DNA of 64,000 bases from an uncultured Alphaproteobacteria bacterium (lineage in GTDB: Bacteria; Pseudomonadota; Alphaproteobacteria; RF32; CAG-239): contig CALXZK010000002.1 of assembly GCA_944393225.1 (NCBI GenBank), positions 15,148 through 79,147 of the forward strand, given 5' to 3'. Below the pieces are notes generated by a model that searched no databases, was not told where the DNA came from, and saw only the letters and a program-made list of their open reading frames with translations. The stretch's first letter is position 1. Every line of letters starts with the position of its first letter. Positions 11,744-59,761 of the stretch are shown piece by piece. A program made the position numbers and the translations under genes.

Positions 11744-11780
11744 AAAAAAAGAGTCTATTTTGACAATAGACTCTTTTTTT
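11744..11780. terminator. Terminator of the atp operon
   Basis: aaaaaaagagtctatt / aatagactcttttttt inverted repeat. Confidence 0.8.
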
Positions 11781-11799
11781 TGTTTATTTCGGAAATTGG

Positions 11800-34134: not shown

Positions 34135-34950
34135 TTAAGCAAAAATTTGCGCTAACTTTTGGTTTTCCCTTTCATCCGTTAAATTAATGCTCAATGCCGA
34201 AATGGTGATATTTTTAGAATGAATTTCTTTATCATCATCGGGAAAAATACTTTCTGGTGAATATCTTCCTTCCAAATTTTGCAGACACATTCTTTTTTTC
34301 TCCACACTTCCTTCATTGAAACGTCTGGTACCATGACGACAGACCAAAATTTTACCGATTTCTTCAGTCGGAACATTGGGAAAATTTACATTTATCAAAC
34401 AATCGGCATCCCAAGAGCATGTGCATACTTTTTTGATTATGTCTTCCAGATAAATATCTGCTAAATTCCAATTAACAATTTCAGCACCGTCCGTTAACTG
34501 AGATACGGCAACAGACATGACACCATGTAACAAACCTTCTATAGCAACGCCAATTGTTCCGGAATAGGTAATATCATCGGCAATATTGCGTCCGTTATTT
34601 ATGCCGGAAACAATCAAATTGGGTTTGTTATCTTTCATAATCATAGATAAAGCAATACGCACACAATCGCTCGGAGTGCCTTCTACGGCAAAATGGCGTT
34701 CATCTATTTTATGAATAACATTTGGAAAATTCTCTGCCGAGCTATGCCCTGCCATGCTTCTTAATGTGTCAGACGTGATGGCATGACTGGCGCCGCTTTT
34801 TTCTTTGTTAGGAGCCACGACCCAAACATCTGCGCCTAATCTGCTTAAAATCTTTTCAAGAAGCTTGATTCCCTTAGCCTCAATTCCATCATCATTAGAA
34901 ATAAGAATCGTTGCCGAAGCAAAATCTGATATCGGTTTGAAATGCATCAC
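34135..34950 (-). CDS. surE: 5'/3'-nucleotidase SurE
   Basis: ILISNDDG, SGASHAIT, GTPSDCV, SGINNG, YSGTIG. Confidence 0.93.
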   Translation of the reverse strand: MMHFKPISDFASATILISNDDGIEAKGIKLLEKILSRLGADVWVVAPNKEKSGASHAITSDTLRSMAGHSSAENFPNVIHKIDERHFAVEGTPSDCVRIALSMIMKDNKPNLIVSGINNGRNIADDITYSGTIGVAIEGLLHGVMSVAVSQLTDGAEIVNWNLADIYLEDIIKKVCTCSWDADCLINVNFPNVPTEEIGKILVCRHGTRRFNEGSVEKKRMCLQNLEGRYSPESIFPDDDKEIHSKNITISALSINLTDERENQKLAQIFA

Positions 34951-35930
34951 GACCGCCCTCCATGACAGAATTTATTACACATATTACTTTGATAGTTGGA
35001 TAATCTACCGTTAAAGAACTCTGATAAAATTCTTTTCTCGTCTTTGCTCAGACCCAACATTTGAATTGACTCATTGATATAATTCAACTCATAAGCCAAA
35101 CGTTTTTCTTCATACGGAGATAATGGTTGTCTTTCTTTAGCCTTAATTATATGAGGAATATCGTTATAATCAGCATTTTCAGATAGAATATTGTTGTTTC
35201 TATCAACAACTTGCAATTTGAAGTCTGCTCCTTTATTAACGGCATCTATCACAATATTAACGCCATCTAATGTTCCCTTACTTAAAAAATCGTGACTTTT
35301 CAAAGAAACCAATCTGGGGACAATCATCTCATTTTCAGAACATTCTAAATTGTGTCTTCTTGCTTGAAAATATCGGGTAACGTTACTCAAATAACACATG
35401 TGTTTGTTGGCTGCGACATATGTGAAATTAATTTGGTAACCTTTCTTACCAAAAATTGCTTCCAAAGAATTTTTAGGATGATTATTAATATCTATGCATG
35501 GCGTAGATATCATAATGTGACGCCCGATATCTGCCGTGCGATAAAGCATATTATCGCGCAGAGCCAACGGAAGCTGACAATAATAATCAGCAACCAGTGG
35601 ATTTTCTTTTATTGCCTCAAATACGCGTTTATCATAAGGACGAAATTCATCAAAATCCGCACTAACTAAATTGCCATTATATTTTTTTAACAGAGCTCGT
35701 TCTACATTGGATTTTCCGGCACCGGGATAACCTAAAACAATTTCGGCAACCGGAGTTTCACCTTCAGTTATGGAGGTGGATTTGCCAATTTGTTGGGTGC
35801 ATACCTTGTTTACCATCAAATTGACATAAGTTTCAGACAACGGTTCTACTTCTGATTTTGCTTTTTTGGGATAATAGACCGTTTTACTATTAGCAATGGT
35901 ATGACGCAGCTCACGATATGTATCGTTCAT
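34947..35930 (-). CDS. Zeta-toxin-family P-loop kinase
   Basis: LGYPGAGKS Walker A, SADFDEFRPYD, later SNVTRYFQAR...VPRLV pattern typical of zeta-like kinases. Confidence 0.7.
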   Translation of the reverse strand: MNDTYRELRHTIANSKTVYYPKKAKSEVEPLSETYVNLMVNKVCTQQIGKSTSITEGETPVAEIVLGYPGAGKSNVERALLKKYNGNLVSADFDEFRPYDKRVFEAIKENPLVADYYCQLPLALRDNMLYRTADIGRHIMISTPCIDINNHPKNSLEAIFGKKGYQINFTYVAANKHMCYLSNVTRYFQARRHNLECSENEMIVPRLVSLKSHDFLSKGTLDGVNIVIDAVNKGADFKLQVVDRNNNILSENADYNDIPHIIKAKERQPLSPYEEKRLAYELNYINESIQMLGLSKDEKRILSEFFNGRLSNYQSNMCNKFCHGGRS

Positions 35931-47149: not shown

Positions 47150-47410
47150 TTAATTGAAATAAATTAAGGACAGTGATGTGATGATAAACAACACAACATA
47201 TATCAACGCATAAAAAACCATTTTACTCATTTTTTGTTTGATTTTTTCTCGGTATAAAAGCGGAAATAAAATATATACCAAAAGATAAACGCTTCCCCAA
47301 AAACCAACAAAAAGCTCATAATCTTGAGGGGTAAACACAAATGCTGTTATACCGCCCATCATCAGGGGAACAACAAAAAAACCAATTATGAAAAATATTA
47401 TCCTCTTCAT
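47150..47410 (-). CDS. Small membrane protein (about 3 TM), hypothetical
   Basis: 86-aa hydrophobic ORF, gagga RBS. Confidence 0.6.
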   Translation of the reverse strand: MKRIIFFIIGFFVVPLMMGGITAFVFTPQDYELFVGFWGSVYLLVYILFPLLYREKIKQKMSKMVFYALIYVVLFIITSLSLIYFN

Positions 47411-47442: not shown

Positions 47443-47476
47443 AAAAAAAAGGCAATATAAAAAAATATTGCCTTTT
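47443..47476. terminator. Terminator at the distal end of the phage-like cluster
   Basis: aaaaggcaatat / atattgcctttt with U-tract on the minus strand. Confidence 0.75.
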
Positions 47477-47486
47477 ATTATATTGT

Positions 47487-47738
47487 TTATATATTTTTGT
47501 TTTTATGATAATTTTTTCTCACTTTATTCCCAATGTCTTTACACTTACTTACGCTATGTCTTGAATTTTTTAAACACTTTATTGTTTCTTTTTCGCCAAT
47601 ATTAAGTGTTTTTATCCCAAAGGCTTCATTTTTTATTTTTTTGTAAGTTTCACTAGCTTTTTCCATTGCTTTATTTACACTTTTATTTTTGACCTTCTTT
47701 AATGCAGTTTTTCCGACTTCTTGTATTATTTTATTCAT
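47487..47738 (-). CDS. Hypothetical basic protein, last gene of the cluster
   Basis: Likely start MNKIIQEV at 47738 (gagggg RBS), overlapping the upstream stop. Confidence 0.5.
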   Translation of the reverse strand: MNKIIQEVGKTALKKVKNKSVNKAMEKASETYKKIKNEAFGIKTLNIGEKETIKCLKNSRHSVSKCKDIGNKVRKNYHKNKNI

Positions 47739-47946
47739 TCTTACCCCTCTGTAATTGTTTGGGATATTTGAACTTGATGGCTTGCCATTTTTCAATCACA
47801 TCAATCAGCTCATAAGGCAAATCGCCTCCTTCTTGCAAAACCATGTCAAAAGCTTTTAAAATGGCATCAAGCTGCTCTCCAATCGGCAAAATTTTCTCAT
47901 AGGCTTTTTGTCTTTTTTCTTTATATGTTGTTTTTGCTCTCGGCAT
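47731..47946 (-). CDS. Small phage protein resembling tail-fibre-assembly/chaperone-like proteins
   Basis: YKEKRQKAYE..PIGEQLD...WQAIKFKYPK resembles a recurring small-protein motif of marine podoviruses (from memory, unverified). Confidence 0.45.
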   Translation of the reverse strand: MPRAKTTYKEKRQKAYEKILPIGEQLDAILKAFDMVLQEGGDLPYELIDVIEKWQAIKFKYPKQLQRGKNE

Positions 47947-47956
47947 TTTTTCTCTC

Positions 47957-48325
47957 CTATTTGATAATTTTTCCGGTTGTATCTACAATTGAATTAAGCA
48001 AACCTCTGTTCAAAGCATTTTCTTTCTCACGATATTTTTGTTGGTAATTATATTCAAAATTATCATTGTTATAAGCCAACTCATCATATCCTTCTTTAGC
48101 TTCTCGTTGTTGAGCTGCCGCTGCCGATTTGCTTGAACTCAAACCCATGGCACTTAATCCGGCTCTTCGGCTTGCAAGTTGCTCATTTAGCAAATTTTTG
48201 CGTTTGGTTTGATTGTATTGATATTCTTTTTGCATTTGTTTTAATTGCTTGTTTTGGTTGTTGGCTTCATTTAACAAATTGACGGCGGTCATACCAACAC
48301 CAATGGCGGTTCCAATCCCTCCCAT
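47957..48325 (-). CDS. Putative small internal virion protein
   Basis: Gly/Ala-rich N-terminus plus Gln/Asn coiled coil (RRAGLSAMGLSSS), directly after tail tubular B, as for T7 gp14-like genes. Confidence 0.45.
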   Translation of the reverse strand: MGGIGTAIGVGMTAVNLLNEANNQNKQLKQMQKEYQYNQTKRKNLLNEQLASRRAGLSAMGLSSSKSAAAAQQREAKEGYDELAYNNDNFEYNYQQKYREKENALNRGLLNSIVDTTGKIIK

Positions 48326-48340
48326 TATTTTCTCCTTTCT

Positions 48341-50239
48341 TTATTCTTTGGTTTTTATTTCATTGGCTACCGACAAAAGCATAAATTTGTTTGGAACATC
48401 ACTTTTGATGCTCCACATTGGCTTTTGTACATCTCTTATCCAACCGATTGAGCGCAACTCAACATCTCCGCTAAACTCATCGGGCGGAGAATCTAAAATT
48501 TGGTCTTTGTGCATTTTCTTTAACGGAACATCAAAATAACCATTACCAAAATCAAGCCTTAAGGATTTTGATTTGATTATCCGAAAAATTCCATGAATCA
48601 AACGATAGGCCTTCGGAGGATAGGGTCTGGTTGAATCTACCATAAAAGGCAACGGCTCTATGATATGTTCATATGGTAAACCAACAATGATTTTACCAGC
48701 CTCGTCCTGAAGTGTTATTTTACCGTTTTCTACCGGCAGTTCTTCTATCGGAAAATCGTCTGCGACAACAGAAACTTTTTTTCCTTCCCATATATCTAAA
48801 TCAGCCCATTCTTTTTTCGGGGTTTCCGATACAAAAATTTTACCGCAATCAACATACATTTCCTCAGAAAATGTTTCCAAAAAATATGTTTCTGCTCTTT
48901 TGATAAGAAAATATATTTCATTACCGATTACAGCACACGATATAAATTTTCCATCGGTTACATATTTGCTCCACGCATTGACCTCTTCTGTGCGATATGA
49001 AGTCAGGCAAGAAATGGTTCCGTCTTCCAAAATCAAGTATAAAATACTATCATCTTGAAAATAAACACAATCCACCGGTTTATTGATGATTTCATCTGAC
49101 AACAAAGTCAAATCTTTGGCTTGATAAGCTTGCTCCACATCAGCATATAAGAACTCACGCAATTGCTTGCCGTTTTGTGATACGAACAAAGTGGCGCCAT
49201 CTACATTTTGCGGCGGAAGTGAATATTTGGCATAGGTTCCGATATTGGTTTGGCGATTGAGTTTAATGCTGGTTGGCGTTAATGGTTCTCCCGATACCAT
49301 CCACTCTGCTCCGGTGGTAAACACCAACAAATGTCTGGTTGAAACAACATTCAAAACCGCATTGACCTGATCTGATAAAATGGCAAAGTCAATAGACTCA
49401 TCATCTAACCCAGTACCTATATCAAAATTAAATAAATCTGATGACTTGGACAGCCATAGGTGGTTTGGTAATGACCTTGAGCCGCCGATGACCATTCTAT
49501 CTTGATGGAATGTTACCGAATTTGGATAGCCGCGAAGTTTTGAAAAAGCTTGTTCTTCCCATTCAGTGGTTTCATTCCCATTGCCTAAGTTTTTAGTCAC
49601 ATCTGCTTTGCAATTTCTTGCATCACTTACTGAGGTTATTTTAGCTTCACCATCATTTATTCTCAGTCGGATACCAACATAATTTTGGTTAAAAAGATCT
49701 GTATCTGCCGTTAGCGTTATATTTCCATTTGTACTGCTTGGTTTGAGCTTTATTTTATTTTGATAAAAATTATAATACGGACAAAATACTTGTCCGTCTT
49801 TTTGATAGAATGACCATTCGGCAATTTTCCAGACCTCGTTTTGATTGCGGCTGATTTCTTGCGGCGGGACATCAGGGTGAACAACCAACAACGTATCAGC
49901 GCTTTGTGTCCAATTGATTTTTTTGAGTTGAGCCAAAGTCCATGGTGTTTCTAAAGTGGAAATCAGCTCTTTATTCTTGTAAATTTTGACTTTTTTATCA
50001 ACGAAACAGAGCAAATAAGTTTGTTCGGTGTTGAACTCAAAAGAAATTAATCTTCCCTCTTCTCCTATCTCGTCGACACAAGCTAACCCCCTTCTTCTGG
50101 AAACGCCACCGGTTGGGTGAATCTGCACATTTTGCAGTTTGCTGGCACCGTTTTCAAAAATGCGCAAATCGCCGCGACCATAAAGTTTGTCCGACAACTG
50201 CCCGGAGGTGAAATTGGTTTTGACGTATATTTGATTCAT
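48341..50239 (-). CDS. Tail tubular protein B (nozzle; T7 gp12-like)
   Basis: TNFTSGQLS...GR.D N-terminus, AFSKLRGYPNSVTFHQDRMVIGGS, EEVNAWS; position after tubular A. Confidence 0.8.
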   Translation of the reverse strand: MNQIYVKTNFTSGQLSDKLYGRGDLRIFENGASKLQNVQIHPTGGVSRRRGLACVDEIGEEGRLISFEFNTEQTYLLCFVDKKVKIYKNKELISTLETPWTLAQLKKINWTQSADTLLVVHPDVPPQEISRNQNEVWKIAEWSFYQKDGQVFCPYYNFYQNKIKLKPSSTNGNITLTADTDLFNQNYVGIRLRINDGEAKITSVSDARNCKADVTKNLGNGNETTEWEEQAFSKLRGYPNSVTFHQDRMVIGGSRSLPNHLWLSKSSDLFNFDIGTGLDDESIDFAILSDQVNAVLNVVSTRHLLVFTTGAEWMVSGEPLTPTSIKLNRQTNIGTYAKYSLPPQNVDGATLFVSQNGKQLREFLYADVEQAYQAKDLTLLSDEIINKPVDCVYFQDDSILYLILEDGTISCLTSYRTEEVNAWSKYVTDGKFISCAVIGNEIYFLIKRAETYFLETFSEEMYVDCGKIFVSETPKKEWADLDIWEGKKVSVVADDFPIEELPVENGKITLQDEAGKIIVGLPYEHIIEPLPFMVDSTRPYPPKAYRLIHGIFRIIKSKSLRLDFGNGYFDVPLKKMHKDQILDSPPDEFSGDVELRSIGWIRDVQKPMWSIKSDVPNKFMLLSVANEIKTKE

Positions 50240-50805
50240 CCTCTTACCTCCACAAGCGTAAAGTCTTCAAAACAAGAAGGTGTTGATTGTTGCGCATCAA
50301 TCGAGCGTGCTCGACTAACACTGTCTTCGGCAATTTTGCTTAAAAATTCGGCTCTGGTTGTGCTCTCGGTCAACGGGATGCAAAACTCATAAGCCAATTT
50401 GTTGATTAAAGCCTCGCAAAAATATGCCGGAAAGTTATCTTCATCCGGACGACGCAAATAAGTTAAATTGAGCTGCGGCAAATTTGTATAAATGCAATCT
50501 TTGACAATTTTATATTCAATGCCCCTACCCTTGCTTCCATACCCTGCCGAAACAATCCGCAAAAAATCGGACGGAAGCAGATAAGCATAGCTAAAATCGG
50601 CAATCGGCGTATTTTCCAAACGCGCCAACTTGGTTTGAGTTAAAGCAAAGCTCCATGGATAAGATGATAATAAGGCATCGCGAATATAGGGATATAAATT
50701 GCCGGCAACTTCTGCCTCTGCCGTTCCGTCTTCAAAACTGGTTATGCTTGAAGCACCGATTTTTAACAGAGCCTGTGAACAGATATTGATACTGGTGTTA
50801 CTCAT
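50236..50805 (-). CDS. Tail tubular protein A (adaptor; T7 gp11-like)
   Basis: INICSQALLKIGASSI...YPWSFA...YAYLLPSDFLR; likely start MSNTS at 50805. Confidence 0.8.
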   Translation of the reverse strand: MSNTSINICSQALLKIGASSITSFEDGTAEAEVAGNLYPYIRDALLSSYPWSFALTQTKLARLENTPIADFSYAYLLPSDFLRIVSAGYGSKGRGIEYKIVKDCIYTNLPQLNLTYLRRPDEDNFPAYFCEALINKLAYEFCIPLTESTTRAEFLSKIAEDSVSRARSIDAQQSTPSCFEDFTLVEVRG

Positions 50806-50821
50806 ATACTCTTTTCCCTTC

Positions 50822-50854
50822 AAAAAAAAAGGAGCCTGCATTGCTACAGGCTCC
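50822..50854 (-). terminator. Intrinsic terminator between head and tail genes
   Basis: Minus strand ggagcctg-tagcaatg-caggctcc followed by 9 T. Confidence 0.8.
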
Positions 50855-50921
50855 CTATCATTTGCTTACAGTGTATCTTTTTATTTTAAATCATTTTCAT
50901 AAAAGGTATAATTTATTTCCG

Positions 50922-51182
50922 TTAAGCGGCAGCAGGTGTTGCCAAGGCCGCAACAGTCACTGTTCCGTCTTCAATTGAAGATACGGACAAAACTGCCGGT
51001 TCTAATGTACTTGCCGTGCCGGCATTGGTCAAAATCATATCGCCTTTGCGAGCAAACGGAGCAATATCGTTGAAATAACCGCTTCCTTTAACGGTATTTA
51101 AATCATCTTCAGATGAATAGTTCCACAAAGTAAAACCATTGGCATAAGCCATTACGCTGAAATTTTTTGAATCATAAGCCAT
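50922..51182 (-). CDS. Small virion protein after the capsid gene (possible decoration protein)
   Basis: 86 aa, beta-rich (FTLWNYSSED...GYFND...GDMI); strong aggaa RBS. Confidence 0.55.
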   Translation of the reverse strand: MAYDSKNFSVMAYANGFTLWNYSSEDDLNTVKGSGYFNDIAPFARKGDMILTNAGTASTLEPAVLSVSSIEDGTVTVAALATPAAA

Positions 51183-51207
51183 ATTTTTAATTCCTTTCTT
51201 CTATCAA

Positions 51208-52032
51208 TTATTCTTCTTTGCATTTGATGCGGATAACGCCGGTACCGTCAATTAAGCATGCGCCTTGGCTCATCATGTTATTAACAAAGTGAGCGGCATG
51301 GTCGCCGTGCCATGTGATGTCTGATTTTACATCTTGACCGGAAGCATGTCCGACTGCGGTTTTGTGAAAAATGAAGCAATCGCGATTGGTGCCATCAAGC
51401 GGTAAACCGGTGTGCATAATCCAGTTGATGCCCAACCATTTGCGGCTTTCGGTACCTTTTAAGAACGGCAAATTGTCACCGGCATAGTCAGAGTTAGAGA
51501 ACTCATCAATATTCAACAAAGCATTCCATTGCAAAGGACCCACAATACCGAAGCGTTGTCCATCGTCCGGAACATCGTTGCTGTTCAATTTGGCAAAAGC
51601 TTGCAAGATGGTGTCTTTGCTCAAAACTTGAGAATAATCACCGACATCATTTTCAACAGGTGCTTGGCTCAAAGCACCGATAATCAATTCATCGGTTTTT
51701 CTACCCAAAGCATAAGCACCGGCACTGGCAACCACGCGACGTTCATCAATGCTCATTTTGAGCTCATCCAAAGCATCTACCCAATCACCGGCATAGTAGT
51801 CGAGCAATTCGCATTCGACCGGTGTGTGGTCGATGCTCATGACCGGAACCAAACCATGACGAGCCTTACCGGAGGCAATGCCTTTGCCAACCTTTTGGAA
51901 TACAGTGGTGGCACCGACAATGTTACCTTTGTAACGAACGGCATTTCTCAATTTTGAGCCCATTTGTTGGTATGCCAAATGAACATCTGCTTCAAAGTTT
52001 TTAATAAAGGACTTACTTACTTCTGTTGACAT
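51208..52032 (-). CDS. Major capsid protein
   Basis: F..DVHLAYQQMGSKLR, AGAYALGRKTDELII, FAKLNSNDVPDDGQRF, GACLIDGTGV; follows the scaffold gene. Confidence 0.8.
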   Translation of the reverse strand: MSTEVSKSFIKNFEADVHLAYQQMGSKLRNAVRYKGNIVGATTVFQKVGKGIASGKARHGLVPVMSIDHTPVECELLDYYAGDWVDALDELKMSIDERRVVASAGAYALGRKTDELIIGALSQAPVENDVGDYSQVLSKDTILQAFAKLNSNDVPDDGQRFGIVGPLQWNALLNIDEFSNSDYAGDNLPFLKGTESRKWLGINWIMHTGLPLDGTNRDCFIFHKTAVGHASGQDVKSDITWHGDHAAHFVNNMMSQGACLIDGTGVIRIKCKEE

Positions 52033-52078
52033 GTTTTTATTTTCCTTTTCATGTTAAATGTTAAAAAAAAATGTGAGA

Positions 52079-52789
52079 TTATTTTTCAGGATAGAGTTTT
52101 TCAAAACCACGAGTGATTTTGGCGATATAGGCGCTATCCTTATCACGCCAATAACGCGGGTCTTCCATCATTTTACGAAGTCCGGCTTCACTCAGATTGC
52201 TCATCTCGCCGTCGTTTTTGTTCAATAACGGTTCAGATGAACTCATCATCTTGTAAAGGGCAATCACACCTTCAGATGTTGAGCCCAGCGCTTCATAAAC
52301 TTCCGGATTGACATTTTGTTTTGCCCAGTTGGAAAGAGAGCGAGAAACCTCGTTAAACTTATCTCTGCCGCCAAAGTAGCGAGAAAGTTTTTCAAGTTGT
52401 TTTTCAGCTTCAAAATTAACGGCCATTTCATCTAAAACCGGCAAAACTCTCTCGCCTGCCAAGTCATAAACAAACTGAGCTTGTTCGTTGGTGAAACCTT
52501 TTTCATAAAAACGTTTCATCAAATCTTCATCTACTTCCAAAACAGGTGACGGACTTTTGATTTGATATTGCGTATAATTTTGCGGCATGTTGCGCAAATT
52601 GGTTTCAATCAGATTATCATCTCTTCTTGCCAAATCGTTATAAGAGGCAATCAGTTCTTCCAATCTGACCTCGCCTTTTTGCTCGTCCCAAAATTGTTCG
52701 GGCAAGCCTTGCGGTTTGTTAGAATATCCACCATTTTGAGCCATAGCGGATGTTTCCAAAAGATTTTCTGTTTTTGCTTTTGGTTGCAT
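52079..52789 (-). CDS. Capsid assembly (scaffolding) protein
   Basis: GLPEQFWD...Y, acidic helical body, C-terminal MMEDPRYWRDKD..YIAKI..GF; likely start MQPKAK at 52789. Confidence 0.7.
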   Translation of the reverse strand: MQPKAKTENLLETSAMAQNGGYSNKPQGLPEQFWDEQKGEVRLEELIASYNDLARRDDNLIETNLRNMPQNYTQYQIKSPSPVLEVDEDLMKRFYEKGFTNEQAQFVYDLAGERVLPVLDEMAVNFEAEKQLEKLSRYFGGRDKFNEVSRSLSNWAKQNVNPEVYEALGSTSEGVIALYKMMSSSEPLLNKNDGEMSNLSEAGLRKMMEDPRYWRDKDSAYIAKITRGFEKLYPEK

Positions 52790-52814
52790 TTGTTTTCCTT
52801 TCATGTAAAAAAAA

Positions 52815-53042
52815 TTAATTGATGTCACTAAGCTGCTCTATTTGGCGGACTAACCTTCTTTGTCCTTCCAAATCGCGCAGGTGACGGTCTTCTGCGTCTG
52901 CGCCCAAGCACCTCTCTATGGTTTGGCGGCGCAAATATGAGAGGACAATTTTGCCCTCTTTACTTATGAAGCACCGAACAAAGGCTTTTTTGATTTCTTC
53001 ATCGCTCATTTGTCTGGTGTCATATTCCTCATGCGGCGGCAT
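52815..53042 (-). CDS. Small conserved phage protein between portal and scaffold (Bbp19-like)
   Basis: AFVRCF.SKEGKIVLSYL...LEGQRRLVRQIE; likely start at 53042. Confidence 0.55.
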   Translation of the reverse strand: MPPHEEYDTRQMSDEEIKKAFVRCFISKEGKIVLSYLRRQTIERCLGADAEDRHLRDLEGQRRLVRQIEQLSDIN

Positions 53043-54570
53043 TTTCTTCGCCTCCGCCGATAAAGCCTTGCAACAGATTTTCATCTATGATTTTTTCGTT
53101 TATCAGTTTGTCGGGCACATTCAAAATTTTGCCTAAAGTTTTGGCTGCCTCAAATGCATTGACCGCGCCCATACCCAGCGCCCCCAAAGAAGAAACTAAA
53201 GACACCCATTGACTGATGTTGTTGACGTCTTCTCTGGCTTTGAGCATGGCTAACGGCGATTTGTATTGCAAATCGACAATTTTGCCGTCTAAGTCAAAAT
53301 TCATAATGTCACCGCGACGACGCAAAATCAGAAATGCACGCTTGAGCAAAGGAGTCAGCAACTCGGATTGCAAGCGTCCGAAACTGGCACCTAAAATGCG
53401 TGCTATCTCTGCGGTTCTTTCCAAAACTTCAGTTGCAGTCATATTCGGAGCATTGACTTGTGATAATCTATCTGCCAGCAAAGCATGATTGATATTCTTT
53501 TGCAGATTTTCTAAAATCAGCTGCGAAACATCAAATTTTCCGGGAGCTTCCAACGGAGTTAAGCCTTTTGAACCCACCGCTTTGGGAATAATTGCTCCGG
53601 GGACAAGTTTGATATTTGCCGGATTTAGAACCCCGTCATCATCAGCCTGCCAAATTCCGGTGACGGAAATGGAGGCGTTTTTCAATATCAGTTCCACAAC
53701 CTTATTGGCGGTTTTGATATCCGGCAAAGCCTTCATCACCGGAGAGCGCCCATAAATTTCTCCGGGAGCTTTGAGCCAACGGAAATTGATGAACGGCGAA
53801 GAAGAAAATACGCCTTCTTTCAAAATAACATTATCTTCCACACCGCTGTTTTCATCCCACACAAAAGCCGTGTATTCATACCCTGCGGCACCAAATTTAC
53901 CGTTTTGCGGAATAACCGCTTCAATCAAGCTTAAGCGAAAATCCGGATTTTGAGCTTGCTCCAGCCAGCTATCTTGTAACTCTGCCTCAGGGAAACGCAA
54001 ACGAATATCATCGATACTGACTTGTGAGCAACGGAATGTCGTATCCAACTTGCCATCGGCACTTTCTTCCAAAGCAATTTCTCGCAATGGAACAGCATAA
54101 AATCGGAATGCCGACGCTTCTCCAATCGGCGCTTCTTCAAACATCAAACAAGCCGTGCCGACCGTAATTAAATCCAGATAGCATTGATGAATTTCCACCG
54201 CAAAATTAGAATGTTCAAAATGCTGCAACATAATGTCTGAGGTTTTGCTCAAAGTTTCTGCCACTTGTGAAGCTTCTTCCGGCAACAACTCCGGACCAGC
54301 CGTCAAGCCAAACCATTTTGACCATGGCGGTGTCAATTCTGCCAAAAGTGATGATGCCAACTGATCAACCGCATCCGGTGCCGTGGCATCAAACAAATGC
54401 AGATTTTTCTTTGCCCCTTCCACATTTTGAAACATTGAACTGCAGACATTTTCTCTTTGCGGAAAAGCATATTCATAACATTCTTGCCAATGGGGTTCCC
54501 AGAGCTGTTTTCTTTCCACAGCCTTTTGATAACGTTTGATAAGCTTTTCGATTTTATTATCCATTTTCAC
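53029..54570 (-). CDS. Portal / head-to-tail connector (T7 gp8-like)
   Basis: FDATAPDA...LAS, RWLKAPGEIYGRSP...ALPDIK, MTATEVLER, RLQSELLTPL, YKSPLA. Confidence 0.9.
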   Translation of the reverse strand: MKMDNKIEKLIKRYQKAVERKQLWEPHWQECYEYAFPQRENVCSSMFQNVEGAKKNLHLFDATAPDAVDQLASSLLAELTPPWSKWFGLTAGPELLPEEASQVAETLSKTSDIMLQHFEHSNFAVEIHQCYLDLITVGTACLMFEEAPIGEASAFRFYAVPLREIALEESADGKLDTTFRCSQVSIDDIRLRFPEAELQDSWLEQAQNPDFRLSLIEAVIPQNGKFGAAGYEYTAFVWDENSGVEDNVILKEGVFSSSPFINFRWLKAPGEIYGRSPVMKALPDIKTANKVVELILKNASISVTGIWQADDDGVLNPANIKLVPGAIIPKAVGSKGLTPLEAPGKFDVSQLILENLQKNINHALLADRLSQVNAPNMTATEVLERTAEIARILGASFGRLQSELLTPLLKRAFLILRRRGDIMNFDLDGKIVDLQYKSPLAMLKAREDVNNISQWVSLVSSLGALGMGAVNAFEAAKTLGKILNVPDKLINEKIIDENLLQGFIGGGEENAAA

Positions 54571-54761
54571 TCTCCCAATAATGTTTTGCGGTTCAAATCG
54601 CGATTTGTGGGATCAAATGTTCCGGTATAAGATGTGCGGATGGTGCTTTCCAAACCACGACGTTGACGCGCCAAAGCTTCTTGTCTTGCCTTTTCGGCAT
54701 CTTGCGCCGAAGTGTCTTCAACCACTTGAATTTTTGGTTTGCTGCTAAATACGCCTCCCAT
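54567..54761 (-). CDS. Small virion-assembly protein upstream of the portal
   Basis: MGGVFSSKPK...RRGLESTI.TS..G......KTLLGE; ggag RBS; stop overlaps the portal start. Confidence 0.55.
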   Translation of the reverse strand: MGGVFSSKPKIQVVEDTSAQDAEKARQEALARQRRGLESTIRTSYTGTFDPTNRDLNRKTLLGE

Positions 54762-54784
54762 GTTTTCTCCTTTCTTTTTGATAT

Positions 54785-54812
54785 AAAAAAAGCCCGAATT
54801 TTTTATTCGAGC
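54785..54812 (-). terminator. Putative intrinsic terminator between lysis and head genes
   Basis: Minus strand gctcgaat-aaaaa-attcgggc followed by 7 T. Confidence 0.6.
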
Positions 54813-54835
54813 AGGTTCCTGTTTTTTTGTTAAAA

Positions 54836-55330
54836 TTATTGCTTCTTGTTGTTTTTTTCGGTTCCGCTTTTGACAACCTGAATACCCAAAACGCCCAGAG
54901 CCACACTCCAAAGTGAAGTGGTTTCAACCAAAGCATTGATGATGTTTTCGGCATTTTGATATCCGCTTAAAACCACATAGCAGACGGTGCCAATCATCAA
55001 CAACCAAGCCAAAGCGACCGAATAGCCAAAAGCCGGACGCCAAAAACGCACAAATTTGTCTTCGGCATTCAGTTCTTGACGTATGGTCTGATGAATCTGC
55101 GATAATGTATTGTTATCGAGCTCATTTTCCAGTTCTTTCATCTTTTCCAAATGCCGATTGGCTTCACTCACCGCAGCATTGGAAATTTTTTGTTTTTCAA
55201 TATCCGAGCTTACTTCACCCAAAGCTAAATTGGCTTTGAGTGCCGTATCTCCGCCGATTTTTTCTAACCCTGACCGCACCATTTTAATCAAAAACGGCAG
55301 CCCGAATTGGCTTAAAAGTTTTATCAGCAT
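54836..55330 (-). CDS. Holin of the 3TM (gene-transfer-agent release) type
   Basis: EDKFVRFWRPAFGYSVALAW...ALGVLGIQV..SG.EK matches the GTA_holin_3TM pattern. Confidence 0.7.
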   Translation of the reverse strand: MLIKLLSQFGLPFLIKMVRSGLEKIGGDTALKANLALGEVSSDIEKQKISNAAVSEANRHLEKMKELENELDNNTLSQIHQTIRQELNAEDKFVRFWRPAFGYSVALAWLLMIGTVCYVVLSGYQNAENIINALVETTSLWSVALGVLGIQVVKSGTEKNNKKQ

Positions 55331-55750
55331 TTATCTCTCCACATCGTTGTAAAAGACATGATTGCCGATTTCGGCACAAGGGATTTTCCCGATGGACCAA
55401 CGTGGACGCACTTTTTTGGTGTGATAATGCGTGGCACCGTAAGTTCTGTCGGGCAAAAGTCCTGCCAAAGCACGTTTGGCGATGCGTTTACAAGTGGCAT
55501 AAATCGGGTTGCTCTCATCCACACGCAGCAAAAGCCGATAATTGGCATCGTCCAAATTCCAACAAGAAAATTGTTTATCTTTTTGGCAGACGCTTGCCAC
55601 GTCATTTCCCCACCAATAGCCGCCTTTTTTCTCGCTCAAAGCAACCCTGTTCATAATCACATTGGCAACCGCTTCTTGTCCCGATAATGGTTCTCCCCTT
55701 GCCTCACCGAAAATGGTTTTGGCAAAGATGTCCGTTGTTAAATCTGTCAT
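55331..55750 (-). CDS. SleB-like cell wall hydrolase (Hydrolase_2), probable endolysin
   Basis: KTIFGEARGE (catalytic Glu), AVANVIMNRV, QFSCWN, GATHYH, IGNHVFY. Confidence 0.88.
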   Translation of the reverse strand: MTDLTTDIFAKTIFGEARGEPLSGQEAVANVIMNRVALSEKKGGYWWGNDVASVCQKDKQFSCWNLDDANYRLLLRVDESNPIYATCKRIAKRALAGLLPDRTYGATHYHTKKVRPRWSIGKIPCAEIGNHVFYNDVER

Positions 55751-56034
55751 GAATTTCTTCCCACCCCATCTAATTTTTTTTCAATTCTCAGCAAATGGTC
55801 GGTTAAGCGATTTTCCACATCTTTCAGATAGTTGACCGAAACATAATTGCGGGCGACATGAAGCTTGAAATCTGCCAAAGCATCTTTCAAATTTGAAACA
55901 TGAGCATCGTGTGCTTCTTTCAAATGTTCTATGCCTTTATCCGCTTCTTTTTTGTTGCGATTAACCAATCGAAACAATGCGGCAAAAACCGGCAGCTCCA
56001 CCATTGCTATCCAGTTTGTCAGTTCGTTAAACAT
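55747..56034 (-). CDS. Small phage membrane/coiled-coil protein (lysis-associated?)
   Basis: N-terminal hydrophobic segment, FKLHVARNYVS...VENRLTDHLLRIEKKL. Confidence 0.5.
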   Translation of the reverse strand: MFNELTNWIAMVELPVFAALFRLVNRNKKEADKGIEHLKEAHDAHVSNLKDALADFKLHVARNYVSVNYLKDVENRLTDHLLRIEKKLDGVGRNS

Positions 56035-56042
56035 TGTTTTTC

Positions 56043-57551
56043 CTAATCTATTGTAAAAGTTGTTTGTGCCGAAAATTGCTTAGAGCCTCCTTGCCATTTG
56101 TTATATTTTGGCGGTGTGTTGCCGACAAAACAAACATTCAGGCGCAAAGGTTCATTACTCAAGCAGCCGGCAACGGCATCAAGTGCATCATCATGTCCGG
56201 TTCCCTCAACTGAGAACTCGCGCATTTCTTCAATAAACGGCGTGCTCCAAATTTTTTTATGAACATTTAACGCTCTTTCCGCCAGCAGAACCTCAAAAGC
56301 CGAAATTATTCTCTCAGCTTTGTTTTTGCTTGAGTACATTTCCAAAACAGCAACACGCATATTTTTTTGCGCCAGAACTTGTTTTAATATCCCCGGCAAA
56401 AACTTACCGATACCGTTGGCTTCTACCCGAACGGCATTCAAATGATTGCGCTCAATAAAAGCCGCTACCTTTTGACATTGTAATGACGCCGCATTATCTC
56501 TGACCTCATCTTCAATTTTGATATATTCCAAATCGTGCAGCCAATAGTGCCCATCTTCATCGGTAAAGACGCAGGCAATAACCGAATTATCTCCCTTTGA
56601 AGATGCAAAAGATGGATCCCACCAGCAAGAAGCCGACAACATTTTCTTCTCCCCGATTTTCAAAAAATCGCGCCCGTTTGAGGCAACGATGTTGATTTCT
56701 GCCTCATAAGGCTTCAAACAATCAGGATTCAAAATGCTGTCATTAAAGTTGACCGGTGTCAGCATCATTTGTGACAAGAATTTGTTTTCGCCGGAACGAA
56801 TGCGGATTGAAGCAATCTTCTCTTCGCTAAACCTTTCCGGCCAAGCAGATTTTCCTTCTTTATCCAAAATCGGCAGTTCCAACTTGGCAAAGCCCAGCAA
56901 AAAAGGTTCGGTCTCCGGCTTTTTATCATCGTATGCTACCTGATAGATGGTATAAAACGTATGCGGCGTGCCGATATAAAGCTGCATGCCTTCGGGTGTT
57001 AAGATATAATCCAACTCCTCTAGCTTTTCTCTCATATCGGCTCGCTTGGTCGGAGAATCCGAATTTTTCGGAACTTCAACGTCATCACAAATAATCAAAT
57101 CGGCACGCAAGCCGGTGATATTTGCGCCCAAGCCTTTGGCTAACATTGACGGATCTCTGAGCTCAAGCGGACGATTGATGGTAAATTGTCCTGCCGCCCA
57201 TTGATCTGACTTTTTAGGCTTCAATCCTTTGGTCAAAGGATGCTGCTCAATAATGCGTTTGACGTTTCTGACCATTTTTTTTGCCAAAGCATGATCTGCC
57301 GCCATAACCAAAATTCTGGTCTCGGGCTTATAATATAAAACCCAAGCACAAAACAAACCGACAATTGTTGACTTGCCAGAGTTGCGAAACGCCATCAACA
57401 AACCTTGTCTTTGTTTGGACGTTGTAAACAACCCGGACAACCAATGTGCCATTTTGCTTTGATGCTTGGGTACTTTCAGCCCCTGCAAACGCATCCAGAC
57501 ATATACAAAATCAAAAAAGCTGACTTTTGTGTTTAAGTCAGCTTTCATCAT
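56043..57551 (-). CDS. Terminase large subunit (T7 gp19-like)
   Basis: Walker A AFRNSGKST, Walker B LIICDDVE, IGTPH, WWDPS, HDDALDAVA; likely start at 57551/57548. Confidence 0.9.
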   Translation of the reverse strand: MMKADLNTKVSFFDFVYVWMRLQGLKVPKHQSKMAHWLSGLFTTSKQRQGLLMAFRNSGKSTIVGLFCAWVLYYKPETRILVMAADHALAKKMVRNVKRIIEQHPLTKGLKPKKSDQWAAGQFTINRPLELRDPSMLAKGLGANITGLRADLIICDDVEVPKNSDSPTKRADMREKLEELDYILTPEGMQLYIGTPHTFYTIYQVAYDDKKPETEPFLLGFAKLELPILDKEGKSAWPERFSEEKIASIRIRSGENKFLSQMMLTPVNFNDSILNPDCLKPYEAEINIVASNGRDFLKIGEKKMLSASCWWDPSFASSKGDNSVIACVFTDEDGHYWLHDLEYIKIEDEVRDNAASLQCQKVAAFIERNHLNAVRVEANGIGKFLPGILKQVLAQKNMRVAVLEMYSSKNKAERIISAFEVLLAERALNVHKKIWSTPFIEEMREFSVEGTGHDDALDAVAGCLSNEPLRLNVCFVGNTPPKYNKWQGGSKQFSAQTTFTID

Positions 57552-57849
57552 CTTCTTCTTGCTCCTGTTCATGTGCTTCTTCCAAAATGGAAGATATATC
57601 AAAATTATCATTCTGCGGCAAAGACATCGGCTCGTCTTCGGTCCAACGCGCGAGTTTTAACAAAGTTTCGGCATGAACCACCGCCGACTTGCATGCGCTA
57701 TGATGCGCACTAAAGCCTTTGGCATCGACCGGTGCCGGTTGCTCGGCAAAATTTTCGTAACTTTCAATCACCTCCGATATTTTTTGTGGTAATGTTTTTT
57801 TCAAATTTGCTTTTAATGATTTTAGTGTTTTTATTTTTTTACTTGGCAT
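57538..57849 (-). CDS. Hypothetical helical protein overlapping the terminase start (candidate small terminase subunit)
   Basis: Position and overlap; DAKGFSAHHSACKSA...LLKLARW with an acidic tail. Confidence 0.5.
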   Translation of the reverse strand: MPSKKIKTLKSLKANLKKTLPQKISEVIESYENFAEQPAPVDAKGFSAHHSACKSAVVHAETLLKLARWTEDEPMSLPQNDNFDISSILEEAHEQEQEEDDES

Positions 57850-57865
57850 TATGTGCATATCCCAT

Positions 57866-57890
57866 AAAAAAAAGCTCCGCAATCGGAGCC
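57866..57890 (-). terminator. Intrinsic terminator upstream of the packaging genes
   Basis: Minus strand ggctccg-attg-cggagct followed by a T run. Confidence 0.7.
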
Positions 57891-57978
57891 TTATTTTGTT
57901 TTAGATACACTACCAGCAAGTGATATTATGCTTATAGATTAAAAAAAATGAAATGTTAAGACTTTTTTCCTACTATTT

Positions 57979-58380
57979 TTAAGAGTTTGTTAAAAAAATA
58001 TATAATTGGTATGGTGTAATAATGCTAACCTTATGAATTCCCAATATTCTCTTAACAAATTCAACACATGTAAAAAATCCGAGCGGCGCGCATTTCAGCG
58101 GTGCTTGTTGAAACTCCACCGGCAGAACTGTCACATTTTTGCTTGTTTTTAAGTGATTTATATAATCCAAACCCAATAAAGATTCGTGTTTGAAGATATA
58201 CAACTGATTCGACATAGGATTAAGTTCCAACCATAGGTTGTGCTTTTTTGATATGCAAATTAGCATATAACAATGTCTGTAGCCTTTTTTTAAAAATCTT
58301 AGCCACCACAAACTGGTGTTGTTTTCAAAAACCACATAGCCTTTAAAAAAATATCCGCTTTGGAATCCGGAATTACGCAT
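57979..58380 (-). CDS. Hypothetical protein, possible permuted papain-like (NlpC/P60-related) fold
   Basis: GYRHC (His) ... FTCVEFVKRILG ... TPYQL (Cys) order. Confidence 0.5.
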   Translation of the reverse strand: MRNSGFQSGYFFKGYVVFENNTSLWWLRFLKKGYRHCYMLICISKKHNLWLELNPMSNQLYIFKHESLLGLDYINHLKTSKNVTVLPVEFQQAPLKCAPLGFFTCVEFVKRILGIHKVSIITPYQLYIFLTNS

Positions 58381-58389
58381 TTGTTTCTC

Positions 58390-58728
58390 CTACAAAATTT
58401 TATAATATCTTAAATAAACATCAAAATTGCGTAAGCCTTCTTCCCACAAGCGGATTTCACTGCGTTTTGCTCTCTTATCATCCCAAGGAGCAAGCTGTTT
58501 TTCTCCCCACTCTGTCATCACACGCAAATGCCGATTGCTGATGTGATGATGAAGTTTCATGTTTTTTATTATTCGATAAATATCTGTTATTTCACAACAT
58601 CTTGGTTTACCACAATAATCTGACCGTGAGCGCAAACCTCCCGCTCTTGCTTGCACCGAGGTGCAAAACCAAAACCAAACTTCTTCGGCATTTTCAAACG
58701 GTTCAAAATTTTCTTTCATTCCCTTCAT
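58390..58728 (-). CDS. Hypothetical protein, first gene of the cluster (candidate activator/antiterminator)
   Basis: PFENAEEVWFW...PRCCEITDI...WGEKQLAP...RLWEEGL; divergent from the repressor. Confidence 0.55.
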   Translation of the reverse strand: MKGMKENFEPFENAEEVWFWFCTSVQARAGGLRSRSDYCGKPRCCEITDIYRIIKNMKLHHHISNRHLRVMTEWGEKQLAPWDDKRAKRSEIRLWEEGLRNFDVYLRYYKIL

Positions 58729-58752
58729 GCTCCCCTTGAAATGTTAACACAA

Positions 58753-58771
58753 TTAACCAAATATTAACCAT
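58753..58771 (+). promoter_or_regulatory. CtrA-type binding box TTAA-N7-TTAAC(CAT)
   Basis: ttaa-ccaaata-ttaac-cat in the divergent intergenic region, plus another ttaac at 58744. Confidence 0.45.
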
Positions 58772-58884
58772 AAAGTTTTATACATTAGGTTGTAGGAATT
58801 TCAACATAAAAAAGAATTGATTCCTATTTCATCTTTTGTTATGATAGGAAAAATTGCCTTTAACCCTTTCTGAAAGCAAAAAAA

Positions 58885-59505
58885 ATGAAATATGAAAATG
58901 TTTGGGATGCTGTTGATAAGTTGGCAGAAAAGCATGGACTTTCGCCTTCCGGTCTGGCAAAACTCGCCGGTCTTGACGCTACCACTTTTAATAAAAGCAA
59001 ACGTATTCGCCCTGACGGTAAAAAAAGATGGCCTTCTCTTGATAGCATTAACCGCTTGCTCGAAATATTTAATATCACCTTTGAGCAATTCTATGCGCTT
59101 AGCGCCGGAACAGAAGAAAAAGAAAACGGTTCAATCCCTTTTATCAAACTCTCGGAATTGAATGCACAAAATTTTCCTGTCGATTTTAAAATAGCGGCAC
59201 AAAATTGGAGTAAAGTGCTTTTTCCTGATTTTAAAGAGACTCTTTATGCCATTGAAGTTGACAACGAAGCTTATTTTCCGCTATACCGTTTCGGTACAAT
59301 GCTTATTGTTTCTGAAAATTCTGACATCCGCAAAGGAGATCGCGTGGTTATCTACCTTAATGATGGCTCTATCTTATTGCAAGAATTTGTCAGAAGAACC
59401 CCTTCTAAACTGATTGTTACCGACATCAATCATCCCGAAGCCGAAGAAACAATTGCCATTGCCGATATCAACCTCATCAACCGCATTGTCTGGGTTAGTC
59501 AGTAG
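58885..59505 (+). CDS. XRE-HTH + S24-like (CI/LexA-like) repressor with degenerate catalytic dyad
   Basis: WDAVDKLAEKHGLSPSGLAKLAGLDATTFNKSKR...RWPS; C-terminal EVDNEAYFPLY and LLQEF. Confidence 0.85.
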   Translation: MKYENVWDAVDKLAEKHGLSPSGLAKLAGLDATTFNKSKRIRPDGKKRWPSLDSINRLLEIFNITFEQFYALSAGTEEKENGSIPFIKLSELNAQNFPVDFKIAAQNWSKVLFPDFKETLYAIEVDNEAYFPLYRFGTMLIVSENSDIRKGDRVVIYLNDGSILLQEFVRRTPSKLIVTDINHPEAEETIAIADINLINRIVWVSQ

Positions 59506-59515
59506 GAGATGCTCT

Positions 59516-59761
59516 TTGAATATAAAAAAATATTTGCAGCTGAGCGATAAAAAACTGCTCGAATTGGAAAATAAATATCAGTTTCTTCCCGACGAAGAAG
59601 AAATTGATAGTTTGAGGTTGTCGGCTGATAAATCTTGCTTGAAAGAAACTGCCCGTATTGCCAGACTTCATGCGCTGCAAAGACGAACCGAAAAAGCAGA
59701 AAAACTCCTTTCCGAAAAACGCAAACAAGCCATATTAAGCCGCTTTATTCGTCCTGAATAA
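59516..59761 (+). CDS. Hypothetical helical protein
   Basis: Probable TTG start at 59516 after aggag RBS (frame of track ORF 59414-59761). Confidence 0.45.
   Translation: MNIKKYLQLSDKKLLELENKYQFLPDEEEIDSLRLSADKSCLKETARIARLHALQRRTEKAEKLLSEKRKQAILSRFIRPE

Follow-up and report, generated by a model that had tools for sequence, protein, structure and literature searches.

A gene cluster in gut Alphaproteobacteria that is probably a domesticated podovirus derivative resembling a gene transfer agent

The stretch of DNA considered here (64,000 nucleotides of contig CALXZK010000002.1 from an uncultured alphaproteobacterium, hereafter the window) contains a cluster of phage-type genes of about 12 kb, spanning positions 47447-59761, in which one repressor gene diverges from about 19 genes on the minus strand. 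As argued below, this locus is probably a domesticated, chromosomally fixed derivative of a T7-supergroup podovirus (HTVC010P/BPP-1-like), that is, a 'viriform' comparable to the gene transfer agents (GTAs), whose genes would make DNA-filled capsids with a short tail stub that are released by lysis. Gene families were assigned by Pfam and PHROGs, to which NCBIfam, Rfam and searches of PDB sequences and folds were added, whereas gene calls and flanks were read from identical contigs in public assemblies. A search with the portal protein over one genome per GTDB species yielded more than 500 relatives. The 24 closest of them, all metagenome-assembled genomes (MAGs) of gut-derived Alphaproteobacteria including CAG:495 and Candidatus Scatocola, make up what is called here the gut clade, which we take to be the GTDB order RF32; the remaining relatives are referred to as the wider family. 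A preliminary description of the window, made from its letters, had already recognised an intact set of terminase, lysis, portal, scaffold, capsid and tail tubular A and B genes, and this content was borne out by Pfam and PHROGs. The single orientation that it noted also holds, all genes lying on the minus strand except for the repressor and a co-oriented open reading frame (ORF) of 81 aa. The features are as follows, from the repressor side to the opposite end:

59516-59761, plus strand: 81-aa ORF directly downstream of the repressor (gene call; no match in NCBIfam).
58885-59505, plus strand: repressor with a Cro/C1-type helix-turn-helix (HTH) and a degenerate S24 (LexA/cI-like) domain (Peptidase_S24, E 6.9e-6; HTH_26).
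58729-58884, minus strand: divergent control region (footprint across 23 gut loci).
58390-58728, minus strand: o112, first early gene, a family-specific four-helix protein that adjoins the repressor in gut and wider-family loci.
57979-58380, minus strand: o133, second early gene and hallmark of the family (invariant His36/Cys37 and Cys105/Glu107 in alignments).
57866-57973, minus strand: late promoter, leader and terminator, directly after o133 and ahead of all late genes.
57538-57849, extendable to 57882, minus strand: small terminase (terS) candidate of 103 aa, named from its position only.
56043-57611, minus strand: large terminase (TerL), T7-type, the called product being of 502 aa from 57551 (Pfam Terminase_6C and Terminase-T7_RNaseH-like).
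55747-56034, minus strand: o95, 95 aa, containing a hydrophobic N-terminal stretch as well as a coiled coil (phrog_29007, E 1.5e-37).
55331-55750, minus strand: endolysin, SleB-type hydrolase (Pfam Hydrolase_2, E 4e-22).
54836-55330, minus strand: holin of the GTA_holin_3TM family (PF11351, E 1.2e-8).
54570-54764, minus strand: 64-aa protein (MGGVF...), always ahead of the portal (weak match to phrog_831).
53029-54570, minus strand: portal or head-to-tail connector (Pfam Head-tail_con PF12236, E 3e-127).
52815-53084, minus strand: Bbp19-like small protein (PF25181, E 5e-11).
52079-52828, minus strand: scaffolding protein of the T7 capsid assembly type (PF05396, E 8e-16).
51208-52032, minus strand: major capsid protein, Phage_capsid_2 (PF19821, E 1e-72).
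50922-51182, minus strand: o86, small protein after the capsid gene (phrog_18004, E 1.5e-18).
50236-50841, minus strand: tail adaptor, i.e. gp11-like tail tubular protein A (phrog_394, E 3e-51).
48341-50239, minus strand: tail nozzle, i.e. gp12-like tail tubular protein B (phrog_376, E 3e-144; Pfam Phage_nozzle PF25675).
47957-48325, minus strand: o122, Gly-rich and coiled-coil protein of 122 aa that follows the nozzle family-wide (F16).
47731-47946 and 47487-47738, minus strand: two small terminal ORFs of 71 and 83 aa, after which comes the terminator that closes the unit.

Several of these genes deserve comment. The small terminase candidate lies directly upstream of terL, which it overlaps, and matches a family devoid of assigned function (phrog_31793, E 1e-36). 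The same is true of phrog_29007, to which o95 belongs; this protein adjoins SleB across the whole family and is a candidate lysis protein of the holin or spanin type. The 3TM holin shows a transmembrane-like segment at residues 105-123, and homologues of the 64-aa protein (o114a/F13/F14) are found directly upstream of the portal family-wide. The o86 product, a possible decoration or cement protein, keeps its position in the wider family and in the Pelagibacter phage Hodr, and its gene is followed by a strong terminator-like hairpin (50856-50829), much as the T-phi terminator follows gene 10 in T7. Another such hairpin lies downstream of the holin (54812-54792), so that the unit is split by coding-strand terminator-like hairpins after o133, after the holin and after the capsid and o86 genes, with a further one at its end. 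Among the terminal ORFs, the one of 71 aa (F18) recurs in gut loci and the one of 83 aa is confined to the closest relatives.

The unit ends in a bidirectional terminator (47447-47476) on one side and in the 81-aa ORF on the other, and, as first described, it is located between housekeeping genes: YhdP and a HAD-like gene of 165 aa on one side, and an esterase (Abhydrolase_2), SBP_bac_3, MlaC, GltX and CysS on the other. The remaining genes of the window are also of the housekeeping kind (Mfd, RecG, ATP synthase, PriA, RNase R, MutS). The reported lack of integrase, replication and recombination genes, of att repeats and of tRNA stood up to family searches and to repeat and tRNA scans: no ORF of the element matches an integrase, replication or recombination family in Pfam, PHROGs or NCBIfam, no tRNA occurs within the 64-kb window, and no att-like flanking repeat was detected, the direct repeats around the unit being short and at chance level and hence rejected as att sites. 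Phage genes for RNA polymerase, DNA replication, internal core proteins or a tail fibre were found neither in the locus nor in the rest of the window. The sole tyrosine recombinase of the window (19621-20547, Phage_integrase and SAM_1 domains) is XerC/D-like and sits beside PriA, about 27 kb from the near end of the element, a distance that argues against its being an integrase of the element.

The control region between the repressor and o112 contains an inverted repeat, TAGGAAT..ATTCCTA (58826-58793), which overlaps a -35 box TTGAAA (58804-58799) and is followed by a -10 box TATAAA (58782-58777) and by a direct repeat TTAA-N7-TTAA (58767-58753) ahead of the ribosome-binding site of o112. Across the 23 gut loci of the footprint, the inverted repeat with its -35, the -10 and the direct repeat are nearly invariant while the adjacent bases vary, and an AGGAA box upstream of TTGAC recurs family-wide. 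The direct repeat was found in all 22 gut loci scanned (shuffle expectation 1.1) and in none of 42 wider-family loci, where the same place is occupied by an exact GTTC-N7-GTTC in 20 of the 42 (shuffle expectation 0.2), a motif seen in 0 of the 22 gut loci. We take GTTC-N7-GTTC to be the alphaproteobacterial LexA box and TTAA-N7-TTAA to be the CtrA-box consensus. The repressors differ in parallel. Those of the wider family retain in alignments the S24 serine (GDSMEP), the lysine and an AQAG cleavage-type site, whereas that of the window has Ala for Ser (DNEAYFP), Gln for Lys and no AQAG; the nine gut-clade repressors aligned all lack Ser and the AQAG site, and most of them also the Lys. The HTH domain is nearly invariant, and no PDB sequence matched the repressor alone. 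Since the SOS-type box of the wider family goes together with a repressor that keeps its self-cleavage residues, induction there would follow DNA damage; because in the gut clade the TTAA box replaces the GTTC box and the repressor has lost Ser, site and usually Lys, control there appears to have passed from the SOS response to a different signal of the host, for which CtrA is a possibility. A small ORF at the position of the 81-aa ORF is present family-wide (F31 in the gut clade, F25 elsewhere).

The two early genes are peculiar to this family, as neither o112 nor o133 has a match in Pfam, PHROG, NCBIfam or PDB sequences. The AlphaFold2 model of o112 (mean confidence, pLDDT, 87) consists of four helices, and its best fold resemblance is to the Q antiterminator of phage 21, at a non-significant level (TM-score 0.42-0.47, E 4-9); o112 is thus a candidate antiterminator or regulator. 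For o133 (pLDDT 88), the fold search of the PDB gave nothing significant, the one resemblance, to the Aichivirus 2A H-box/NC protein, being weak, and its invariant residues make it a predicted Cys/His enzyme. Its profile detects 2200 representative clusters at E<=1e-3 in a library of 1.84 billion proteins.

Directly after o133 comes what looks like a late switch. In the window it comprises a GTAGGAA box (57973-57967), a -35 TTAACA (57959-57954), a -10 TATAAG (57936-57931), a leader box ATCACTTGCTGGTAGTGTATC (57924-57904) and an intrinsic terminator hairpin (57892-57871) with its T-run. The order in the family is a (T)AGGAAAAAA box, a near-consensus -35 TTGAC(A), a spacer of 17-18 nt, the -10, a leader box of about 20 nt (ATCACTTGCTrGTAGTGTrTC in the gut form, CAACGCCA-N4-TGCGYCC elsewhere), an intrinsic terminator of lineage-specific stem sequence in most loci, and then the first late gene. 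Promoter and leader box were present in every gut locus examined and in most wider-family loci, the hairpin with T-run after the leader box in most gut loci. A window-specific repeat, TGAAATGTTAA, was discarded as a separate element, as it belongs to the two promoter regions. The leader region has no match in Rfam, and a leader hairpin can be drawn in some lineages (CACT/AGTG, ACGC/GCGT, GGAC/GTCC); since it is not general, none is claimed. Such an arrangement, a late promoter closely ahead of an intrinsic terminator and upstream of all late genes, with further terminators inside the late region, predicts processive antitermination of the lambdoid Q type (PR'/tR'), where a strong promoter is likewise followed by an intrinsic terminator within about 60 nt, after a small early regulator gene. 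The resemblance has its limits, as o112 shows no detectable sequence homology to Q, its likeness to the fold of Q21 is not significant, and the leader box differs from known Q-binding or put elements.

In all 24 species-level gut genomes the element genes keep the same order, and in most of them the flanking genes are also the same, with prfB-hydrolase-yhdP upstream. In this regard, the preliminary description had mentioned a similar cluster near yhdP and prfB in other Rhodospirillales, which proved right for the gut clade and wrong for other Rhodospirillales, where the site differs. Core genes are single intact ORFs in nearly every gut genome, and about 17 genes are intact across the 24 species. 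Ratios of non-synonymous to synonymous substitution (dN/dS), calculated by the Nei-Gojobori method for pairs with dS <1.5 since synonymous sites are saturated for most pairs, were 0.042 for TerL, 0.045 for the portal, 0.067 for the nozzle, 0.077 for the capsid, 0.084 for the adaptor, 0.115 for the endolysin and 0.13 for both the scaffold and o95, rising to 0.21 for o112 and to 0.57 for the less constrained o122. The flanking genes gave 0.041 (YhdP), 0.043 (GltX), 0.067 (esterase) and 0.096 (MlaC). Purifying selection on the morphogenesis, packaging and endolysin genes is therefore as strong as on their housekeeping neighbours. Promoter, operator, leader and terminator elements are conserved as well.

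Moreover, the element diverges together with its surroundings. Its non-synonymous distances correlate with those of either flank (r 0.97-0.985) as well as the flanks do with each other (r 0.973), at a rate about 0.65 times that of the flanks, and neighbour-joining trees of element and flank for 19 taxa have 14 of 16 bipartitions in common (label permutation: mean 0.23, maximum 3). Relative synonymous codon usage of element and host genes correlates with r 0.92, to be compared with 0.96 between host genes, and the GC content at third codon positions (GC3) is 0.41 in the element and 0.416 in the host; composition is thus fully ameliorated. Co-divergence, congruent trees and host-like codons are hard to reconcile with an element hopping between hosts, and they strongly support the vertical maintenance and host retention that had been proposed at the outset, when amelioration and dN/dS were suggested as checks.

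Portals from beyond the gut clade show 52-60% identity, and their carriers include Magnetospirillum, Paramagnetospirillum, Phaeospirillum, Caenispirillum, Terasakiella and Telmatospirillum, together with Thalassospiraceae, Magnetovibrio, Defluviicoccus and Algihabitans. The gene maps of high-GC loci, obtained with a GC3-filtered ORF caller, are approximate. The wider-family order is repressor, o112, o133, small protein, portal, Bbp19 and scaffold, then a cargo slot, and thereafter capsid, o86, adaptor, nozzle, o122, tail-fibre-like genes, terS, terL, o95, SleB and holin. Because the terS-terL-lysis block has moved before the portal and the fibre genes have been lost from the cluster, the gut clade is, from its gene order, best described as the derived form. 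Housekeeping genes abut the wider-family repressor directly, and one right boundary is a host TPR/glycosyltransferase (GT9) gene. In many Rhodospirillales the neighbours are conserved within a lineage: the flank in the Magnetospirillum group is FolE-ApaG-Cys/Met-SDR, and lysS, accompanied or not by a class IV aminotransferase, adjoins the element in at least 13 loci of several families. That aminotransferase (F34, beside the repressor) had been considered as an integrase and was rejected on identification.

The interior of these loci holds 102 distinct non-core proteins matching 59 Pfam families, the 25 most frequent of which comprise tail-fibre-type domains and host-like cargo (MCP, HAMP, GGDEF/EAL, metallo-beta-lactamase, Sel1) and include no integrase or replication family; scans of individual interior proteins add radical SAM, RelA/SpoT and a colicin-like toxin. 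The gap between scaffold and capsid is a hot spot at which host-like genes have been inserted, frequently in the opposite orientation, as at L165 12640-13329, L166 10890-12487, L113 5924-8308 and L185 3624-5537, with cargo such as an MCP signalling domain, a metallo-beta-lactamase/ODP protein, a GGDEF-EAL protein and an MBL-DHH-like protein. An MCP-like cargo gene is common to Magnetospirillum and Telmatospirillum, and toxin- or alarmone-type cargo occurs at L169 16967-18505 and L195 11812-13125 (a colicin-like 'Cytotoxic' domain; a RelA/SpoT synthetase domain). A recombinase seed search over about 250 loci returned one tyrosine recombinase, a recombinase-like ORF (L093 5962-7062) in the cargo slot of one 94-kb IMG/VR contig, which is probably part of a different inserted element.

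Over 49 loci, with GC between 0.31 and 0.72, the core closely follows its flanks in GC content (r 0.99), and portal and flank distances correlate with r 0.72-0.94, which lends partial support to vertical inheritance in the wider family. All portals of the element group in a single clade of the portal tree, which a long branch separates from the nearest cultured phage, and named taxa largely stay together. A misplaced case is Terasakiella sp. PR1 (L036), whose portal and upstream flank group with Magnetospirillum/Paramagnetospirillum and not with Terasakiella LRMN1 (L044), a hint at either horizontal transfer or a naming problem.

Free phages offer only distant relatives. Among 50,697 phage records no close relative was found, the best identities to cultured phages being about 35% for the portal and at most 33% for TerL, and no plasmid-borne copies were found; the situation that would have spoken against host retention, close homologues confined to free phages, was thus not encountered. 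The nearest phage is Hodr, with 28-46% protein identity (SleB 46%, capsid 42%), which has the structural module and SleB and lacks the repressor, o112, o133, terS/terL, o95 and o122 of the element. With the HTVC010P/Hodr pelagiphages and BPP-1-like phages the locus shares the order portal, Bbp19, scaffold, capsid, small protein, adaptor and nozzle, as well as SleB; those phages have complete genomes of about 34-42 kb, whose other genes are missing here, and the locus does not fall among the Autographivirus/T7-like phages.

Database labels give a different impression, as IMG/VR files these loci as 'proviruses' of about 14-25 kb. An o133 homologue filed under 'Caudoviricetes sp.' was rejected as a free phage, its contig being a chromosomal locus with PBP1A-prfB-YhdP flanks. 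Other element contigs are filed as Lactobacillus, Bacteroidota, Solirubrobacterales, Lactobacillaceae or 'Caudoviricetes sp.' (L031, L045, L050, P0071, P0155) and are probably mis-binned or mislabelled. A GenBank entry of 5084 bp from human faeces in Mexico, 'UNVERIFIED Bacteriophage sp.' (MT838907.1, L251), carries an element portal at 73% identity; it may stem from a DNase-treated virome of virus-like particles (PMC8361208), which would be a hint that the DNA is packaged, but this link could not be confirmed.

Comparison with known systems places the locus next to the GTAs. Like RcGTA, it is a chromosomal, replication-less cluster of phage structural genes (about 12-18 kb), vertically inherited, under purifying selection and of ameliorated composition; both have a holin of the GTA_holin_3TM family, a CtrA-type box occurs in the control region of gut-clade loci, and additional genes for adsorption may be encoded at other genomic sites. 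Ancestry is nevertheless unrelated, since RcGTA has an HK97-type head, a prohead protease and a siphovirus tail whereas portal, scaffold, capsid, adaptor, nozzle and TerL are here of T7 type; the locus is further distinguished by a cI/LexA-like repressor of its own and by what appears to be an antitermination switch. No protease, tail tube or tape-measure gene is present, and the two have only the holin family in common. The initial proposal of a podovirus type (T7/BPP-1) distinct from RcGTA is accordingly sustained. Large clusters of the RcGTA type have been reported to be absent from Rhodospirillales (PMC5721377, PMC6821227).

The GTA-like element of Faecalibacterium prausnitzii, FpGTA, is also gut-bacterial and probably podovirus-like in morphology (PMC12946183), and its packaging of host DNA was shown experimentally in the 2026 paper that presents it as the first podovirus-like GTA-like element and the first one in the gut (PMC12946183). 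It belongs to another phylum and is split into two operons, with fibre and receptor-binding genes among their content. PBSX of Bacillus subtilis is, like the present element, a conserved, repressor-controlled defective phage-like element, and the present one, whose induction in the wider family appears SOS-linked, would share with it inducibility, the packaging of host DNA and the lysis of the producer; PBSX differs in being of myovirus type, and kills target cells by means of its contractile tail. Literature searches brought up no description of the present family. Particles induced by mitomycin in Azospirillum lipoferum 4B and Azospirillum sp. B510, which contain about 10 kb of host DNA and whose genes were never identified (PMC3899980, PMC2818188), are possibly related to it.

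The locus thus combines phage-derived structural, packaging and lysis genes in a chromosome, the want of its own replication, excision and integration genes, and vertical inheritance under selection, as in GTAs and other viriforms. Mobility functions supplied in trans from other parts of the genome are conceivable. TerL, portal, capsid, adaptor and nozzle are the most constrained genes although the locus cannot replicate, and the filling of capsids with chromosomal DNA followed by lysis, in a GTA-like or PBSX-like system, is the simplest way to read this. In the mechanism that we propose, the HTH repressor would hold the early promoter through the TAGGAA inverted repeat, while a second site over the transcription start would respond to DNA damage in the wider family, where it is of the SOS type (GTTC-N7-GTTC) and paired with a repressor that keeps its self-cleavage residues, and would put a host regulator in control in the gut clade, where it is of the CtrA type (TTAA-N7-TTAA) and the repressor lacks Ser, cleavage site and usually Lys. 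Derepression would lead to expression of o112 and o133, and an antiterminator, for which o112 is the candidate, would allow read-through of the leader terminator and of the later ones into terS-terL and the lysis, head and tail genes. Since the locus can neither excise nor replicate, the terminase would package chromosomal DNA; the stub of adaptor and nozzle would close the filled capsids, and the SleB endolysin with one or more holins would release the particles.

A number of observations weigh against a gene-transferring podovirus derivative. Most of the evidence stems from MAGs, and the particles of the carriers are a prediction from gene content. Neither tail-fibre genes nor the large internal (ejection) proteins of T7 type were found in the cluster or in the 64-kb window, and no tail-fibre homologue was found in the 26 gut loci searched. 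This weakens a strict GTA reading, as adsorption and DNA delivery would have to proceed with no visible machinery unless it is encoded elsewhere. RcGTA keeps adsorption genes elsewhere in the genome and uses competence genes of the recipient, and the absence is therefore a gap and not a contradiction. The binders of the LexA-type and CtrA-type boxes are deduced from consensus motifs only, and the assignment of o112 as an antiterminator rests on the fold resemblance already described as non-significant. The 164-aa 3TM holin is fragmentary or absent in about half of the gut-clade loci. The nozzle is split into two ORFs in one MAG (L023 13527-15430) and the adaptor hit is short in another (L018 13708-14085). 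Finally, chromosomal sites differ between families, which implies relocation or horizontal transfer at some depth. As separate observations, SleB and o95 are intact in the loci with holin loss (L008-L011, L013-L017, L020-L023, L245 12626-13333), where o95 may serve as the working holin, and the split nozzle and short adaptor may be either real pseudogenes or assembly errors.

A more ambitious version of the GTA-like reading is held only tentatively. It would see here a second, independent and ancient GTA lineage of podovirus origin in Alphaproteobacteria, fixed in Rhodospirillales and gut RF32 (lineages reported to lack RcGTA), endowed with a Q-like switch, rewired in the gut from SOS to control by a host regulator of the cell-cycle (CtrA) type, and moving chromosomal DNA between cells of bacteria that are common in the human gut and in the environment.

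Among the alternatives, the one that survives best, although we regard it as unlikely, is that the domesticated element serves its host in some way that does not involve gene transfer, be it programmed lysis with release of DNA or cell contents, interference with infecting podoviruses, or PBSX-like particles that package DNA and are unable to deliver it. The evidence of vertical retention and selection applies to it equally, the lysis genes are conserved, and a gut clade devoid of fibre and ejection genes fits non-injecting particles. Selection is nonetheless strongest on portal, TerL, capsid and nozzle, none of which would be needed for a benefit from lysis or from the repressor alone, and the wider family keeps diverse tail-fibre genes, which imply adsorption to cells.

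Less still can be said for a mobile element, be it a minimal temperate podovirus that relies on its host to integrate and replicate or a capsid-forming satellite that takes fibres and other functions from a helper phage, and we consider it quite improbable. It would account for the differing sites between families, for the loci of about 14-25 kb picked as proviruses by IMG/VR callers, for hot-spot cargo reminiscent of phage morons and for the L036 portal that groups away from its named genus. Yet integrase, replication initiator, att repeats and tRNA are all lacking, and known satellites (cf-PICI-like, where PICI stands for phage-inducible chromosomal island) carry integrase and replication genes; position, tree and distances in the gut clade follow the chromosome as closely as the flanks follow each other, GC follows the host over the whole range given above, and close relatives are missing from phage records and plasmids alike.

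A functionless, decaying remnant of a grounded prophage, as might be surmised from the lack of genes for integration, replication and fibres, from holin erosion in part of the lineages and from occasional split genes in MAGs, is highly improbable in view of flank co-divergence, synteny and intact ORFs in 24 species despite saturated synonymous sites, a core dN/dS of 0.04-0.13 and conserved promoter, operator, leader and terminator elements, so that here too the first assessment, host-retained and not a decaying prophage, was upheld. The capsid nanocompartment that the preliminary description had entertained beside random DNA packaging was rejected as unlikely, because TerL, portal and lysis genes are among the most constrained.

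Known GTAs represent a handful of independent domestications, the alphaproteobacterial RcGTA type being derived from a siphovirus, and the present locus looks like a GTA-like particle system for which these bacteria offer no described counterpart. If the podovirus-derived, GTA-like reading is true, a particle locus kept by selection over Rhodospirillales and a common human-gut clade would count as a further domestication, would illustrate how a lytic switch made of repressor, SOS box and antitermination passes to host control, and would point to a way in which chromosomal genes may flow among gut Alphaproteobacteria that so far resist cultivation. Relatives exist in cultured and genetically tractable Magnetospirillum, Phaeospirillum, Caenispirillum, Terasakiella and Telmatospirillum, which makes the hypothesis directly testable. 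Annotation is also concerned, as such loci are now called proviruses or 'Caudoviricetes sp.' in public databases.

Some minor features of the window may be added. Between the terminal terminator of the element and the esterase gene, an 86-aa protein with three hydrophobic segments (47150-47410) is restricted to L002, L006 and identical contigs, which are the closest relatives. A low-GC stretch at 7001-12000 (GC 0.33-0.37, around 0.40-0.46 in its surroundings) includes ORFs with no Pfam match (7262-7852, 8482-8946, 10248-11636) that adjoin an Fe-ADH-like gene (9038-10114). Finally, a Zeta-toxin-family ORF (34947-35930, E 7e-15) is overlapped by 4 bases by a same-strand ORF (34135-34950), and this pair (34135-35930), which lies among housekeeping genes, may be of toxin-antitoxin or kinase type.

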